Virus record (IMG/VR): IMGVR_UViG_3300044609_000595
Location: 1-64,000 of that record
Reading direction: 5' to 3' (one strand)
Length of the DNA: 64,000 nt
From: a virus
Below the pieces are notes generated by a model that saw only the letters and a program-made list of their open reading frames with translations, had not been told where the DNA came from and made no database searches. Positions 30,514 through 44,387 of the stretch are shown here, one piece after another. The position numbers were made by a program, and so were the translations under genes. The stretch's first letter is position 1, and every line of letters starts with the position of its first letter.

Positions 30514-31114
30514 TATTTTTTACACTCATAAACTGAGATATGCAGTATCTCCCATCACCATTCCAATAAGCATCATCATTTATAGATACTTTCTTTACGC
30601 CGTGCCCTACATATCCAGGTAACAAAATGAAAGTATTATGTGAACACTCAATTTCGTAATTGTATTGTGGAAAATACAATTCCCCGCCACTAAACTTCTT
30701 TGGTGTGGTGTGGAAATATGAGAAGGTTAAAAACTCATGCCCAATATCTGTATGAGGTTGGTATCCCTCTCCATTGTGGTAGTATCTTAACTTTGTGATA
30801 ACCATATTCACATATCTGAGGCGTAATAAATGAGGCCATTTATTTACGATTGTTGATATGAATGGAGTATCTAATGTTTTCTTTGTAACTTGTAGAATAT
30901 TAGATAACTCTGGCATAGCATATGCTTTTTCCAGGTGTAGTGCTCTGCTTTCAGTAAGTTCTGAATTACTAGCGTGATGAACTCCTGGTTTGTATATTTT
31001 GTTTGGATGGGATAAAAATTTAATTTCTTCTAGTATTAATGCTAACTCTTTTTCACTATAAAAGTTTTCAATTAATACATGAGGGAATGGATCATCAAGT
31101 AATTTTATATTCAT
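30497..31114 (-). CDS. 2OG-Fe(II) oxygenase (prolyl-hydroxylase-like)
   Basis: HTD...GGELYF...HGV...R. Confidence 0.85.
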   Translation of the reverse strand: MNIKLLDDPFPHVLIENFYSEKELALILEEIKFLSHPNKIYKPGVHHASNSELTESRALHLEKAYAMPELSNILQVTKKTLDTPFISTIVNKWPHLLRLRYVNMVITKLRYYHNGEGYQPHTDIGHEFLTFSYFHTTPKKFSGGELYFPQYNYEIECSHNTFILLPGYVGHGVKKVSINDDAYWNGDGRYCISQFMSVKNSDNYV

Positions 31115-40465: not shown

Positions 40466-40494
40466 AAAAATAGGGGGCTTTATGCCCCCTTTAT
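40464..40494. terminator. Bidirectional terminator between convergent genes
   Basis: A-run, then AGGGGGC/GCCCCCT stem, then T-run. Confidence 0.75.
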
Positions 40495-40916
40495 TATTTG
40501 GGTTCCTCTGCAGGAACATACTTATGTTGTATTTTATATCCCATTTCACTTGGCGTCCACCATCCAGATGCTAGAGTAGATATTGAAGTTGCTAAAATTG
40601 CTGATGCTATACCAACACCAACAATCATCCATTTAATTCTGGAAACATCTTCAATTTTTTTCTCTACCAATTCCATTTTTTTATTGACAGAATCTCTCAC
40701 TTCATCAATCATTTTAATAATCAATTCATTAGCTTGTGCGGCATGGTCTAATCTATTTTCATGTCGTTCAAGAATGATAGAAACTGTGTGATTACTTTCG
40801 GTAATCCTATCCACAGCTTTCTCCAACTTGTACAACATTTCTTTAGTTAGATTTTCATAAAATTGAAATTTAGATTCAAGAACTGCAATTTGTCTATTGG
40901 TTATACCAAACCCCAT
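40494..40916 (-). CDS. Coiled-coil protein with C-terminal TM helix (paralog of 17401..17835)
   Basis: VLESK...EML.KLE.AVD.I.ESN shared with the paralog; GGAG RBS. Confidence 0.8.
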   Translation of the reverse strand: MGFGITNRQIAVLESKFQFYENLTKEMLYKLEKAVDRITESNHTVSIILERHENRLDHAAQANELIIKMIDEVRDSVNKKMELVEKKIEDVSRIKWMIVGVGIASAILATSISTLASGWWTPSEMGYKIQHKYVPAEEPK

Positions 40917-40933: not shown

Positions 40934-41221
40934 TTAATTGGAAATAATAACTTGGGATGATACATTTAACATATTTTGTTCAATAATTTTTGGCTCAGAT
41001 GAATTATCTGGTGCGGGAGACATTGATTGATAAATGTCAGAATCCTGAATTACATCACTCATATCTCCGTAGTTAATAATGCTTTGATCAACTTCTGCAA
41101 GTTGACTATCAACTATATTTTGTTGGTAATTATAATAGGGATTATAATATCTTCTATAATAATAGGGATCTAGATTGTAATATCTCCTATAGTAGGGATA
41201 TGGTTGGTATCTGTAATACAT
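40934..41221 (-). CDS. Protein with Tyr/Arg/Pro-rich N-terminus and acidic C-terminus
   Basis: MYYRYQPYPYYRRYYNLDPYYYRRYYNPYYNY; AGGAG RBS. Confidence 0.8.
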   Translation of the reverse strand: MYYRYQPYPYYRRYYNLDPYYYRRYYNPYYNYQQNIVDSQLAEVDQSIINYGDMSDVIQDSDIYQSMSPAPDNSSEPKIIEQNMLNVSSQVIISN

Positions 41222-41235
41222 TCTGAATCTCCTAC

Positions 41236-41370
41236 TTAGTAACGATAGTAAGGATAATACGAGTCATAAGGGCAATATCTATCATAATAAGGGTAACACC
41301 CATAGCCGTAAGGGCTGTAGTAGTCATAATATCTCCTGTGGTAATAGGGGTAGTATCGTGGATAGTACAT
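41236..41370 (-). CDS. 44-aa peptide, 50% tyrosine
   Basis: Manual translation MYYPRYYPYYHRRYYDYYSPYGYGCYPYYDRYCPYDSYYPYYRY; AGGAG RBS. Confidence 0.8.
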   Translation of the reverse strand: MYYPRYYPYYHRRYYDYYSPYGYGCYPYYDRYCPYDSYYPYYRY

Positions 41371-42115
41371 TTGGTTCTCCTGTTTGGTTTGCTATATCAA
41401 AAGTCCAAATGTCGTATCCTTCCTGTCTAATATAATCGAAAGGAATCCAACAGTATCCGTTGTTTCCCCAAGTAGTTCCAAAACTATTCTTTGCTAAGAA
41501 TAATCTTTTTTCTAAATCATAACCAACCATGCACATAGCATGACCACCAAGACTTTTTTCTTTCCTTCCTGGAAAGTTTACAGTAGAAATACGCTCATTC
41601 AGATCCATAAAACTATCATAAATTTCCATTCCGAATACAACTGGTTTGTTATTATTCAGCACTTGAGTAATATAATAAATGCTAATAAGTTTTTGATACT
41701 TGAGTATTTTTCTTTTTTTAGCATTCGCATAACATTCGTCAGTTGGACGATCATCAAATTTTTCTAAATCATATGGCCATAATGATTCCTCACACACCCC
41801 AAATTTTGCTAACGATTTCAGACCATCTCGTAAAAAGATACCGTTATCTATTTGAATATCTCCATATTCAGCACGGGTGTTGTAATAAATAAACAACCTA
41901 CTGAGGTGGGTGAAGTATTCTGGATACAAACGATTAACACATAATTCATATGCATTTGTAATAGCGTTAGCAGAACAACTGCCTAATGAATCTTGCGATT
42001 CAACATCAGAATCCCACTCACGGAGGTCTACAGATTCTCTGAGAACTTTAGTGCTATCGTTTCTATAAATGTAATCTCTATTATCTTGACGAGATGGTTT
42101 GATATTAAAGTTCAT
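41324..42115 (-). CDS. Papain-family (C1) cysteine protease
   Basis: QDSLGSC, GGHAMCMVGY and KNSFG catalytic motifs; no signal peptide. Confidence 0.9.
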   Translation of the reverse strand: MNFNIKPSRQDNRDYIYRNDSTKVLRESVDLREWDSDVESQDSLGSCSANAITNAYELCVNRLYPEYFTHLSRLFIYYNTRAEYGDIQIDNGIFLRDGLKSLAKFGVCEESLWPYDLEKFDDRPTDECYANAKKRKILKYQKLISIYYITQVLNNNKPVVFGMEIYDSFMDLNERISTVNFPGRKEKSLGGHAMCMVGYDLEKRLFLAKNSFGTTWGNNGYCWIPFDYIRQEGYDIWTFDIANQTGEPNVLSTILPLLPQEIL

Positions 42116-43367: not shown

Positions 43368-43396
43368 AAAAAAAGGGGGGAGATAACTCCCCCTTA
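43368..43396 (-). terminator. Internal terminator after the first cassette gene
   Basis: Minus strand reads AAGGGGGAG-TTAT-CTCCCCCC followed by a T-run. Confidence 0.75.
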
Positions 43397-43412: not shown

Positions 43413-44141
43413 TCAGCGAACGTTGTTGCTGGTTGAAGATTGACCAACACCAGCCATGGTTCCAAAGTTAACCATTCCCTGACGGGTTTCTTGTAATTGG
43501 CTTTGGAAAGCATTCAATTGGGAAGCAACTGAAGCAAATTGTGCATTGTTAGCACTACCTACAGCATCCCAGTAACCGTGGCGAAAGTGATTAACATCGG
43601 TATTGCGCTCAATCAGAAGACGATTAAGCTCGTCATTCTTTAGTGATTGAATAAGAGCACGGGTGGCATCACCTTCGTTGGCGATTTCTCTTGCTAGGTC
43701 ATACTTGCTTTCAGCAACTTCCTTGCTGAGTTGTGATTGACCTAAAGCAATTGCGGTGCCAAGTCTTGCTGACTCAAGAGCAGTAGCAGTAGCAGCCTTC
43801 TCAGTAGAGAGAAGAATCTCTGTGCTGAGTTTTTGAGAAGCGAGGTCAGTCTGTGCTCTGAGAGCAGCAAGGTCACGGGAGTTATCAAAATCTCTTGCTT
43901 GCCCAGCAATAAAAAAGTCAGCAGCTCTTTGCTGAATCTTGTCAGCAGCTTCGTCTACCTTGGTTGATACATTAGCACCAGTAACCAAAACTTCACGATT
44001 AATTGCATCGTTGCCAACAGCAACAGCATACTTGGTCTCACCGAAACCGATTGCTTGTTCTCTACGAATATCGGAATGGTCTACAGTATATTCTCTACGT
44101 AAATCTGACCATGGATCAGAATACATTACTTGATCTGCCAT
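43413..44141 (-). CDS. Ala/Gln-rich long alpha-helical (coiled-coil) protein
   Basis: True start MADQVMY with TAAGGAG RBS; EIANEGDATRALIQ segment. Confidence 0.8.
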   Translation of the reverse strand: MADQVMYSDPWSDLRREYTVDHSDIRREQAIGFGETKYAVAVGNDAINREVLVTGANVSTKVDEAADKIQQRAADFFIAGQARDFDNSRDLAALRAQTDLASQKLSTEILLSTEKAATATALESARLGTAIALGQSQLSKEVAESKYDLAREIANEGDATRALIQSLKNDELNRLLIERNTDVNHFRHGYWDAVGSANNAQFASVASQLNAFQSQLQETRQGMVNFGTMAGVGQSSTSNNVR

Positions 44142-44379: not shown

Positions 44380-44387
44380 TATTTATA
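44380..44387 (-). promoter_or_regulatory. T4 late promoter driving the minus-strand cassette
   Basis: Exact TATAAATA on the minus strand, about 240 nt upstream of ATG 44141. Confidence 0.7.

Follow-up and report, generated by a model that had tools for sequence, protein, structure and literature searches.

A conserved tyrosine-rich microprotein gene between a papain-type peptidase gene and a second tyrosine-rich gene in uncultured T4-like cyanomyoviruses

The locus and its gene cassette

The window analysed here, a stretch of 64,000 nucleotides (positions 1 to 64,000 of IMG/VR record IMGVR_UViG_3300044609_000595), carries on its minus strand a gene cassette that belongs to a lineage of uncultured T4-like cyanomyoviruses (Table 1). 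Between the genes for a C1A cysteine peptidase and a Tyr-rich/acidic protein lies a short ORF for a peptide, hereafter referred to as the Y-peptide, which runs from an ATG to a TAA codon, overlaps the peptidase ORF by 47 nt and is read in the +1 frame relative to it. The first-pass annotation had described at this place a 44-residue ORF with 22 tyrosines, its own ribosome binding site (RBS) inside the 3' end of the protease gene, a mixture of Tyr codons that is no simple DNA repeat, and a neighbouring gene that starts Tyr-rich and then turns acidic. These claims were borne out by the ORF and its translation, by the AGGAG six nucleotides before the ATG, by the Tyr codons (12 TAT and 10 TAC) and by the neighbour, which has 16 tyrosines in residues 1-33 (pI 9.4) and a pI of 4.05 over the rest. 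TRF detected no more than a trace of a repeat (20 nt, 2.2 copies) towards the 3' end of the locus, which rules out a DNA tandem repeat, and an RNA element was ruled out by the absence of an Rfam match. From base composition, the probability of at least 22 tyrosines in 44 codons is about 3e-18, and in a six-frame scan of the 110-kb genome more than 11 tyrosines per 44 codons were found only at the Y-peptide and the adjoining Tyr-rich gene. A phage-supplied tRNA-Tyr for the Y-peptide was considered and rejected, as there is none among the 12 tRNAs of the 110-kb fragment.

Table 1 Features of the cassette around the Y-peptide gene, in the direction of transcription (positions are those of the window).
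Feature	Position	Strand	Remarks
T4-type late promoter motif TATAAATA	44380..44387	-	exact match; head of the cassette
Rod protein, probably 242 aa	43413..44141	-	M-A-D start conserved
C-terminal motif of the rod, ~32 residues	43428..43523	-	common to the Tyr-rich/acidic protein
Internal terminator-like hairpin with T-run	43376..43393	-	after the rod gene; 7-bp stem, 6 GC pairs, T7 tail
Collagen-like fibre protein, 201 aa	42748..43353	-	Pfam Collagen, E 8.8e-7
Second fibre protein, 203 aa	42125..42736	-	C-terminal domain paralogous to that of the 201-aa protein
C1A cysteine peptidase, xylellain-type, 263 aa	41324..42115	-	Pfam Peptidase_C1; PDB 3OIS
RBS of the Y-peptide gene, AGGAG	41377-41381	-	6 nt 5' of the ATG, within the peptidase ORF
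Y-peptide gene	41236-41370	-	44 aa, 22 Tyr, 2 Cys, pI 8.45, 6.1 kDa
RBS of the Tyr-rich/acidic gene, AGGAG	41229..41233	-	begins 3 nt past the Y-peptide stop; conserved in relatives
Tyr-rich/acidic protein, 95 aa	40934..41221	-	gene begins 14 nt after the Y-peptide gene
N-terminal Y/R/P module of the Tyr-rich/acidic protein, residues 1-33	41123-41221	-	
Central motif of the Tyr-rich/acidic protein, residues 32-63	41033-41128	-	as in the rod
DUF7201 coiled-coil protein with C-terminal membrane helix	40494..40916	-	Pfam DUF7201, E 1.6e-25
Bidirectional terminator closing the cassette	40472..40490	.	hairpin, T-runs on both strands

The late-promoter octamer is found four times in the window, as expected by chance, and other promoter-like sites do not stand out, so that it is the place upstream of the cassette that speaks for TATAAATA. 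The rod gene was listed as an ORF of 292 aa from an upstream TTG; this is probably too long, and the protein would start at the M-A-D given in Table 1. The 201-aa fibre protein also matched PHROG tail-fibre families and PDB collagen chains, and it has Cys clusters that flank its GPP run at either end, followed by a C-terminal beta domain. Cys clusters of this kind are typical of extracellular disulfide knots. Sequence searches of PDB revealed no match of the fibre end domain to Pa223 gp52 or T4 gp9/gp10-type proteins. The C-terminal domains of the two fibre proteins are 43-47% identical by reciprocal tblastn; the 203-aa protein gave a weak Pfam match to Phage_depo_C (E 0.09), and its gene is found in only some of the relatives. 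The DUF7201 gene is an optional end of the cassette that some of the related loci lack, and its product matched phrog_451 and, weakly, a holin family. The promoter motif, the fibre families and the long helical rod point to a late and structural setting. The genes talC and gnd adjoin; CP12, which was considered because of them, was rejected on composition.

Peptidase, Y-peptide and Tyr-rich/acidic protein follow one another in an unvarying order, and all loci that were found via the Tyr-rich/acidic protein carry the peptidase and the Y-peptide in this order where upstream DNA exists. The rod protein is encoded in every locus with a Y-peptide gene and enough upstream DNA. Four distant loci (peptidase identity 47-54%), which have fibre genes and lack the Tyr-rich genes, gave no sign of it.

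Conservation and selection of the Y-peptide gene

In order to assess the conservation of the Y-peptide gene, we compared 36 related loci, 24 of the IMG/VR type and 12 further metagenome loci. The ORF is intact in all of them and encodes 42-53 aa with 18-25 tyrosines. The ATG and the RBS are likewise kept in 24/24 IMG/VR-type and in the 12 metagenome loci, the RBS being GGAG(A) or GGAA at 6-7 nt 5' of the ATG throughout. According to the first-pass annotation, a disrupted or absent ORF in homologous cassettes would have spoken against the finding; the copies in these loci are intact and under purifying selection. In the Tyr frame, the median dN/dS is 0.12 (pairwise 0.02-0.29), whereas it rises to about 1.07 when the reading is shifted to the +1 frame, and the +2 frame is interrupted by stops. 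Differences amount to 49% at codon position 3, compared to 19-23% at positions 1 and 2, and the synonymous divergence among the loci is saturated, with dS up to ~2.

It could be argued that the ORF is a chance open frame in the spacer or the peptidase tail, or else a frameshift extension of the peptidase, since it is short and of low complexity, shares DNA with an annotated gene and is hardly ever picked up by gene finders; in addition, Tyr codons leave the +1 frame open and overlapping ORFs therefore arise easily. Yet chance does not account for the difference in dN/dS between the two frames, nor for an ATG, an RBS and an ORF that have stayed intact in all loci despite such synonymous divergence. 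A conserved frameshift fusion to the peptidase is ruled out by the loci L017 and L022, where stops close the Tyr frame four codons 5' of the ATG, and by L022 and L023, where the peptidase stop precedes the ATG. The non-gene reading, which retains hardly any credibility, is thus refuted as far as comparative sequence analysis reaches, and by the same analysis 41236-41370 on the minus strand is a genuine protein-coding gene under strong selection.

Gene callers overlook this gene almost everywhere. The exact Y-peptide sequence is absent from ~15 billion predicted proteins, a word-index search of 5.8 billion proteins gave no match, and a profile search of 1.84 billion representative proteins gave a single one, an unnamed phage-type relative of 45 aa. 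No Pfam (even at E<=10), PHROG or NCBIfam family was matched. Literature searches on tyrosine-rich phage or cyanophage proteins and on cyanophage papain proteases returned nothing relevant, and an invariant Tyr-rich pair downstream of the peptidase was not found in the literature, Pfam, PHROG or NCBIfam searches. When four other cassette proteins were compared by tBLASTn to 50,697 cultured and deposited phage genomes, the Tyr-rich/acidic protein and the 203-aa fibre protein gave no match, the rod protein matched marginally and in part (20% coverage, E 4e-4), and the matches of the peptidase were confined to non-cyanophages. Whatever its function, the Y-peptide illustrates clearly how a microprotein under strong selection can escape gene callers and, given its near absence from these protein collections, it bears on the small-gene content that is missing from phage annotation.

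Composition of the Y-peptide family

The Y-peptide family consists of 46.3% Tyr, 15% Pro, 10.6% Arg, 5% Asp and 0.1% Lys, compared to 4.3% Tyr, 3.8% Arg and 5.6% Lys in the phage proteome, which amounts to an Arg:Lys ratio of about 100:1 in the family versus 0.68 in the proteome. Gly and Ser make up ~3.5% each; Leu, Ile, Thr, Glu and Lys do not exceed 0.3% each, and Ala, Val and Gln are absent. The individual peptides, which vary in length through indels (41-53 residues), contain 41-53% Tyr, 4-7 Arg plus Lys residues (nearly all Arg) and 0-3 Asp plus Glu residues. The total of the aromatic residues (Tyr, Phe, Trp and His) is 23-26 in 23/24 peptides and thereby steadier than that of Tyr alone (18-25). 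Exactly two Cys residues are present in 20/24 unique peptides, in at least 8 position patterns. Among the better conserved columns of the alignment are R5, the RR at 12-13 and R31, and the Tyr/Pro/Arg pattern extends from residue 2 to the end with no distinct leader. Tyr-Arg and Tyr-Tyr contacts have been described as the main 'stickers' of low-complexity domains, in which Arg outperforms Lys (bioRxiv 10.1101/2024.02.15.580391; PMC13486793). The composition of the Y-peptide points to a sticky, cross-linkable material and not to a folded domain.

The Tyr-rich/acidic protein shares modules with the Y-peptide and the rod

The N-terminus of the Tyr-rich/acidic protein resembles the Y-peptide by hhalign (probability 78%, E 1.9e-5), and its gene is a paralogue of the Y-peptide gene. 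Its centre aligns with the C-terminus of the rod over 32 columns (hhalign probability 95.4%, E 1.7e-8), and in the 110-kb genome the 32-residue motif was found only in these two proteins. In the rod, the core of the motif reads Q-x-M-V-N-F-G-x-M-x-x-V-x-Q. The shared motif could be a cleavage or targeting signal instead of a docking element. In the Tyr-rich/acidic protein, the corresponding Q-x-I-V-N-F/Y-G-x-M-x-x-V-x-Q had been considered as a curli-type amyloid repeat; this was rejected as a likeness by eye, as Curlin_rpt gave no match for the protein at E<=10.

The remaining C-terminal part of the Tyr-rich/acidic protein is a variable acidic/Pro tail. Its 196 metagenomic relatives, none of which is credibly named, conserve sequence beyond composition alone. 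A few members of the family bear the JGI name 'ABC-type antimicrobial peptide transport system permease subunit', which was dismissed as a spurious low-complexity match. The Leu/Ser-rich upstream extension of the ORF at some loci was dismissed as a +2 reading of Tyr codons, which in the window is interrupted by a stop. ESM Atlas yielded no usable match. AF2 modelling from a 63-sequence alignment gave a mean pLDDT of 51.6 and no secondary structure; the protein is thus predicted to be disordered, although a low-confidence monomer model is no proof of disorder. The rod protein was modelled from a 14-sequence alignment as a single helix of residues 45-230 with a core pLDDT of ~90. Its N-terminus carries D-I-R-R-E repeats in variable number, and it matched no Pfam, PHROG or NCBIfam family and, by sequence, no PDB entry convincingly.

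The neighbouring C1A peptidase

The peptidase matched Pfam Peptidase_C1 with an E-value of 1.4e-13 (51.9 bits versus a cut-off of 20.7) and, over residues 7-238, xylellain (PDB 3OIS) with an E-value of 2.8e-38. Since its residue 7 aligns with residue 37 of xylellain, the phage enzyme lacks ~30 of the N-terminal residues. In xylellain, this stretch reportedly lies over the cleft of the structure (Leite et al. 2013). At the other end, the last ~15 residues arise by read-through across the Y-peptide start and are not conserved; in relatives, this tail ranges from none to ~20 aa. In all loci, the Y-peptide gene starts either within the end of the peptidase ORF or immediately behind it. This suggests that the two genes are translationally coupled and that their products are made together in roughly stoichiometric amounts. 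The Y-peptide is absent downstream of peptidase homologues of <=54% identity (L025, L026 and L028-L031).

Proposed role of the Y-peptide and alternative explanations

We propose, with a probability of roughly 0.45, that the Y-peptide acts as an accessory adhesive or cross-linker in a late fibre or rod assembly, which is probably associated with the virion. It would be a disordered, sticky structural accessory that attaches via its Tyr and Arg side chains to the Tyr/Arg module of its neighbour and perhaps also to other aromatic or sugar surfaces. The Tyr-rich/acidic protein, in turn, would use the shared motif to dock at the same target as the rod C-terminus. Two Cys residues would allow the Y-peptide to form disulfide bridges once the particle exits the reducing cytoplasm, and together with its partner it would stiffen, glue or coat an extra fibre or rod appendage of the virion. 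The peptidase may trim the Y-peptide, the partner or the fibres. Since no cultured cyanophage was found to encode the peptidase, the rod, the 203-aa fibre protein or the Tyr-rich/acidic protein, we infer the location in the virion from the late-promoter context and the fibre-type neighbours. The first-pass annotation had suggested phase separation or amyloid assembly, dityrosine cross-links, a matrix glue or a precursor processed by the protease. A sticky or cross-linking material would fit the excess of Arg over Lys, the near lack of aliphatic residues, the usual pair of Cys at varying positions, the predicted disorder of the partner and the motif that the partner has in common with the rod.

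The search for modifying enzymes covered radical SAM enzymes, multicopper oxidases and tyrosinases. Neither the fragment nor two complete (terminal-repeat) relatives of 250-258 kb that carry the cassette yielded a radical SAM enzyme; no multicopper oxidase was found in these two relatives and no tyrosinase in the fragment, the latter being a weak result as the positive control was also unmatched. Dityrosine chemistry would therefore need host enzymes or proceed by non-enzymatic or photo-oxidation.

The main rival to the adhesive reading holds that the Y-peptide and the Tyr/Arg module of its partner are dedicated substrates, decoys or inhibitors of the adjacent peptidase. They would occupy or block the enzyme in the cytoplasm up to its release, or be cut by it into the mature products. 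Papain-family enzymes favour bulky hydrophobic or aromatic residues at P2 and accept Arg at P1; assuming the same for the cassette peptidase, Tyr-Arg and Tyr-Tyr-Arg-Arg sites would occupy the active-site cleft, and arginines are indeed among the better conserved residues of the Y-peptide. The coupled synthesis suggested by the gene overlap and the lack of the N-terminal residues of xylellain also fit this explanation, as do the inhibitor genes that follow other papain-clan enzymes (staphostatins, Spi). Coupling to the peptidase and not to the rod gene, which would be equally expected for a substrate or an inhibitor, counts against the adhesive reading. However, the homologues of 47-54% identity that lie beside fibre genes have no Tyr-rich gene downstream, so that the enzyme can as a rule do without such a partner, and 46% Tyr, two Cys residues and a second module fused to a rod motif would be superfluous for an inhibitor or a substrate. 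We consider this explanation rather unlikely. A less probable one is a transient role within the cell, in which the Tyr/Arg proteins would build a condensate or assembly scaffold that gathers rod and fibre subunits late in infection, without ending up in the particle themselves. Such a role would suit a composition that matches the Tyr/Arg sticker grammar and a partner that is predicted to be disordered, has a motif in common with the rod and consists of a basic Tyr/Arg and an acidic half as appropriate for complex coacervation. A conserved Cys pair is, however, hard to explain in the reducing cytoplasm, and the spacers are Pro and Asp instead of the Gly, Ser or Gln of known prion-like domains. 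We know of no evidence for condensates in T4-like late assembly.

Finally, a small ORF beside a cysteine peptidase, with Tyr and Cys as typical cross-link partners, in a genome with four ORFs for P4H-type 2OG-Fe(II) oxygenases elsewhere, brings to mind a RiPP-like precursor (e.g. Tyr-Tyr or Tyr-Cys cross-linked) whose leader is removed by the peptidase and which is released at lysis. This is very improbable in view of the failure to find a radical SAM enzyme in the fragment or the two complete relatives, a multicopper oxidase in the latter or, less tellingly, a tyrosinase in the fragment. Moreover, the cassette comprises only a peptidase and structural-type genes, a leader/core architecture is missing from a peptide that is repeat-like from residue 2, and the positions of the Cys residues vary.

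If the adhesive reading is true, phages encode tyrosine-based glue or cross-linker peptides, which would be a new virion component in abundant aquatic cyanophages; outside phages, materials of this kind occur in spore coats, eggshells, hair matrix and marine adhesives. In a more speculative version, which we regard as unlikely as a whole, the Tyr/Arg microproteins are a new class of viral material, dock to the rod by way of the shared 32-residue motif, condense and are covalently locked on a cyanophage appendage by disulfides and possibly by light- or oxidant-driven dityrosine formation. If so, this coat would be adhesive, UV-absorbing or hardened and without counterpart among described phage structural proteins. 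As a peptide of 6 kDa, the Y-peptide can be synthesised, and its Tyr/Arg/Pro sticker chemistry, disulfide bridging and dityrosine formation are thus directly accessible.

Comparison with known systems

Compared to RiPP precursors, the Y-peptide has no conserved recognition leader, and no modifying enzyme was found in the searches of the fragment and the relatives. With the Tyr/Arg sticker domains of the FUS family, it shares the dominance of Tyr and Arg and the preference for Arg over Lys, and the partner protein is likewise predicted to be disordered. In contrast to these domains, however, its Tyr density is several-fold higher, it comprises only ~45 residues with two conserved Cys, and its spacers are Pro (15%) and Asp (5%) instead of Gly, Ser, Gln or Asn.

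In the staphopain/staphostatin and SpeB/Spi systems, a papain-clan protease is co-transcribed with a downstream inhibitor, which is a folded barrel or a propeptide mimic. The cassette likewise has a small, apparently coupled gene directly after a papain-like protease without signal peptide or long propeptide. The Y-peptide, however, shows no sequence similarity to staphostatin or Spi, is extreme in composition and of low complexity and, unlike a cognate inhibitor, is missing beside the more distant peptidase homologues.

The Bacillus spore coat (CotC, CotU, CotT) with the collagen-like fibres of the exosporium offers a parallel to the whole cassette, in which Tyr-rich microproteins are likewise found with Cys-rich collagen-like fibres and a cysteine peptidase, in a late setting. 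The Tyr-rich coat proteins and the Y-peptide family have in common a small size and a very high content of Tyr plus charged residues; CotC and CotU use Lys and Asp, whereas the Y-peptide family uses Arg and Pro. No sequence relationship between them was found in Pfam, NCBIfam, PHROG or the 1.84-billion profile search, and the setting is a spore in one case and a virus in the other, where the pair of Cys in 20/24 unique peptides is the one indirect hint of possible cross-linked multimers. The coat proteins, rich in Tyr and charged residues, form extracellular layers of high mass that are cross-linked by dityrosine and disulfides, and some of them are processed by a dedicated cysteine protease, as CotT is by YabG (PMC7944565; PMC13553755). 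YabG belongs to clan CD (PMC12445089), unlike the papain-family peptidase of the cassette.

Xylellain-type C1A peptidases were acquired independently by Myoviridae and Siphoviridae, and the phage enzymes were given no function or partner in that study (PMC10380794). By its match to 3OIS, the cassette enzyme is one of these peptidases. It is set apart from the others by the invariant Tyr-rich pair downstream, and the Y-peptide is the first candidate partner for a phage-borne enzyme of this type.

The tyrosine-rich reading frame is an independently initiated gene

The Y-peptide ORF runs on the minus strand from an ATG to a TAA (41370-41236) and encodes 44 residues, 22 of which are Tyr (12 TAT and 10 TAC codons). 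This recount agrees with the first-pass annotation, which had also placed an AGGAG ribosome binding site (RBS) within the 3' end of the protease gene; the motif is indeed there, and the ATG lies 47 nt within the 263-aa peptidase ORF, in its +1 frame. The stop is separated by 14 nt from the start of the gene of the Tyr-rich/acidic protein (partner), which has its own AGGAG. Judged by base composition, 22 Tyr in 44 codons would arise with a probability of about 3e-18, and a count over the six frames of the 110-kb genome gave no 44-codon window with over 11 Tyr outside this locus. Repeat analysis of the sequence bore out the earlier statement that the ORF is no simple DNA repeat and rules out such a repeat as its source. 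No Rfam family matched the locus.

For comparison, 30 viral-contig loci were retrieved via the peptidase and 14 metagenome loci via the Tyr-rich/acidic protein. When these homologous cassettes were checked for a disrupted or missing ORF, as had been proposed, the ORF was intact and in the same place in all loci with a peptidase identity of at least 58% (23 loci plus the window), as well as in 12 metagenome loci spanning the peptidase-to-partner junction; a 13th junction locus is a metagenome copy of the contig of L012, one of the related loci. Every related ORF starts with ATG, is preceded at 6-7 nt by GGAG(A) or GGAA, comprises 41-53 codons with 18-25 Tyr and stops just before the RBS of the next gene. 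The loci give 24 distinct Y-peptides (alignment A2). Pairwise NG86 estimates were 0.02-0.48 for dN, 0.23-2.4 for dS and 0.02-0.22 for dN/dS, with 49%, 23% and 19% of the nucleotide differences at third, first and second codon positions, respectively. The median dN/dS of ungapped pairs was 0.12 in the Tyr frame versus 1.07 in the +1 frame of the same DNA; the +2 frame contains stops. The peptidase tail overlapping the Y-peptide varies from none to about 20 residues, and in loci L022 and L023 the peptidase stop precedes the ATG. A conserved frameshift fusion to the peptidase is excluded, because stops close the Tyr frame of L017 and L022 four codons ahead of the ATG. These comparisons indicate that the ORF encodes an independently initiated protein under purifying selection, and it is hardly conceivable that it is not a gene.

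The Y-peptide is almost invisible in databases. Its exact sequence is absent among approximately 15 billion predicted proteins, a word-index search gave no match, and the one relative retrieved when 1.84 billion representatives were exhaustively searched with an HMM was an unnamed 45-aa ENA gene call. Literature searches turned up no description of such a tyrosine-rich protein from phages or cyanophages, and homology tests of these phage proteins against every known family considered were negative. The Y-peptide gene is real, conserved, undescribed and extreme in composition.

Composition of the Y-peptide family

The family consists of 46.3% Tyr, 15.3% Pro, 10.6% Arg, 4.7% Asp and 4.3% Cys; Ala, Val and Gln are missing, and Leu, Ile, Thr, Glu and Lys account for at most 0.3% each. 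The large ORFs of the phage itself contain 4.3% Tyr, 3.8% Arg and 5.6% Lys, so that an Arg:Lys ratio of about 100 stands against a background of 0.68, in an AT-rich genome. The total of Tyr, Phe, Trp and His is 23-26 in 23 of 24 peptides (Tyr alone 18-25), and the peptides differ in length through insertion or deletion of Tyr-Pro units. Conservation is highest at M1-Y-Y, at R-R near 12-13 and at P-Y-Y near 27-29 and 34-36. Exactly two Cys occur in 20 of the 24 unique peptides, in at least eight position patterns (e.g. 25/33, 16/25, 11/34, 10/28 or adjacent CC). That the number of Cys is kept while their positions shift points to a requirement for two thiols, and away from a single fixed intramolecular fold.

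The cassette and its virus

The window covers the first 64 kb of a 110-kb IMG/VR virus record, which has an estimated completeness of 57% and encodes psbA, a family-B DNA polymerase, a class I ribonucleotide reductase, T4 RNase H, ThyX and a T4 tail-tube assembly protein. Among cultured phages, only Synechococcus myoviruses gave matches at the DNA level, and the source virus is a T4-like cyanomyovirus. Large ORFs adjoining the cassette are read, by size and sequence, as candidate talC and gnd.

Features of the cassette, in order from its head to its end, with associated sites
Feature	Position	Strand	Remarks
Cassette head, octamer TATAAATA	44380-44387		Alone at chance frequency
1. Rod protein, 242 aa	43413-44141	-	AF2 model
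2. Internal terminator-like hairpin			Between rod and collagen-like fibre genes
3. Collagen-like fibre protein			
4. Second fibre protein			C-terminal domain common with collagen-like fibre protein
5. Peptidase, 263 aa	41324-42115	-	Pfam Peptidase_C1; PDB 3OIS
6. Y-peptide, 44 aa	41236-41370	-	
Y-peptide RBS, AGGAG	41381-41377	-	6 nt 5' of ATG
7. Tyr-rich/acidic protein (partner), 95 aa	40934-41221	-	
8. DUF7201 coiled-coil protein	40494-40916	-	C-terminal membrane helix
Cassette end, bidirectional terminator	40472-40490		
Common rod/partner motif	rod 43428-43523; partner 41033-41128	-	hhalign

The genes of the rod protein, collagen-like fibre, peptidase, Y-peptide and Tyr-rich/acidic protein form a constant set of five in relatives, and those of the second fibre and the DUF7201 protein are variably present. 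Peptidase loci at 47-54% identity retain upstream fibre genes whose end domain is the same; a rod gene was not detected there, and both Tyr-rich genes are absent. The two Tyr-rich genes thus accompany the rod protein no less than the peptidase. The genes of the peptidase, the rod, the second (203-aa) fibre protein and the Tyr-rich/acidic protein are carried by no cultured phage. The DUF7201 gene is the sole cassette part matching cultured Synechococcus myoviruses in DNA (67-71% identity); its match is called 'tail needle protein' in one record, and there is a weak PHROG holin match.

The best solved relative of the peptidase is xylellain (E 2.8e-38), and xylellain-type C1A enzymes have been acquired by myoviruses and siphoviruses (PMC10380794). 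On a distant GC-rich phage contig (L030:24-1970), a C1 peptidase of 29% identity is preceded by a DUF7201-like coiled-coil protein and followed by two small, spanin-like ORFs with lipoprotein-like signal sequences. An arrangement of this sort resembles a lysis cassette, and a homologue from an Alicyclobacillus phage is annotated as 'endolysin', so that in some phages peptidases of this family may act in lysis. Small Cys-rich proteins just 5' of two other distant peptidases (L025:3468-3998 and L028:2997-3299) begin with M-Y-K-K-[VI]-T-H and have the pattern C-x-x-C ... C ... C-A-A-W; such proteins are absent from the cassette of the window.

The Tyr-rich/acidic protein and the rod protein have a motif in common

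Residues 1-33 of the partner contain 16 Tyr and 5 Arg (pI 9.4) and the remainder is acidic (pI 4.05), in keeping with the first description of a gene with a YY-R/P opening and an acidic continuation. Its family has 196 metagenomic members, none with a credible name, and is conserved in sequence beyond mere composition. Several members (e.g. P0012, P0059 and P0076) carry the JGI name 'ABC-type antimicrobial peptide transport system permease subunit', which on a disordered protein of about 90 aa looks like a spurious low-complexity assignment. In most relatives (alignment A1) a V-G-[IV]-C-T element containing a single Cys is conserved, and the tail has a hydrophobic end of the I-L-P type; the copy in the window has a different tail, which is free of Cys. 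The AF2 model of the partner (63-sequence alignment) had a pLDDT of 51.6 and no secondary structure.

Homology links partner residues 32-63 with the C-terminal 32 or so residues of the rod (hhalign 95.4%, E 1.7e-8). The core of this motif is Q-x-[MI]-V-N-[FY]-G-x-M-x-x-V-x-Q, and within the 110-kb genome the motif is confined to these two proteins. It could serve as a signal for docking, oligomerisation or cleavage. The N-terminal module of the partner resembles the Y-peptide over 21 columns (hhalign 78%, E 1.9e-5), a score inflated by low complexity. From sequence, the partner reads as a Tyr/Arg module followed by the rod-common motif and a variable acidic/Pro tail, and the Y-peptide as a free-standing copy of this module. 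The rod protein was modelled by AF2 as one helix of about 185 residues (45-230, pLDDT about 90), and its N-terminus carries one to four or more D-I-R-R-E-containing repeats across relatives (alignment A4). A 292-aa version of the rod ORF, which begins at a TTG further upstream, is probably over-extended, because all relatives start with M-A-D or M-P-D behind a stop.

Proposed role of the Y-peptide

The best-supported reading, to which we assign a probability of roughly 0.45, is that the Y-peptide may be a structural adhesive or accessory of a fibre-rod appendage. It draws on comparative evidence, namely a selected, coupled microprotein gene, the paralogy with the partner N-terminus, the rod/partner motif, the co-occurrence of five genes and the late-type, fibre-type context. 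The Y-peptide would be a disordered, sticky accessory that binds the Tyr/Arg module of the partner via Tyr-Tyr and Tyr-Arg contacts, which are known to drive the association of low-complexity domains and in which Arg is far more effective than Lys (bioRxiv 10.1101/2024.02.15.580391; PMC13486793). The partner would be docked via the common motif to whatever the rod C-terminus binds, and the two thiols of the Y-peptide could form disulfide bridges after release, beside the clustered Cys of the collagen-like fibre. The end product would be an accessory appendage that is stiffened, glued or coated. Four P4H-type 2OG-Fe(II) oxygenase ORFs were noted (genome 92637-94326 (+) and 69603-69749 (+); window 30530-30790 (-)), two of which exceed the Pfam cut-off. 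Hydroxylation of Pro in the collagen-like and Tyr/Pro-rich proteins could in principle be conceived, but these genes are not specific evidence, because they are common in cyanomyoviruses.

The main rival has the papain-type enzyme as the target: the Tyr-Arg-rich sequences would be its substrates, decoys or inhibitor. Papain-family peptidases prefer aromatic or hydrophobic residues at P2 and accept Arg at P1; moreover, the Y-peptide gene is coupled to the peptidase gene, and the phage enzyme lacks about 30 N-terminal residues present in xylellain. However, the more distant peptidase homologues have no adjoining Tyr-rich genes and the Tyr-rich genes are linked to the rod protein, and we regard this explanation as rather unlikely. 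Less probable still is a transient assembly condensate of the Tyr-rich proteins. That the Y-peptide is a RiPP-like precursor seems very improbable, as the leader/core layout is absent from alignment A2, searches of the fragment and of two complete relatives of 250-258 kb gave no radical SAM enzyme, and no multicopper oxidase turned up in these two relatives.

Comparison with the Bacillus spore coat

The Bacillus spore-coat proteins have no sequence relationship to the phage Tyr-rich proteins, their Tyr-rich members differ from the Y-peptide family in charged residues, and the coat protease YabG is of a clan other than that of the papain-type peptidase (PMC12445089). Nevertheless, the spore coat is the nearest analogy in kind to the cassette: the small Tyr-rich proteins CotC and CotU are found in high-mass cross-linked assemblies, and YabG, a cysteine protease, processes coat proteins such as CotT (PMC7944565; PMC13553755).
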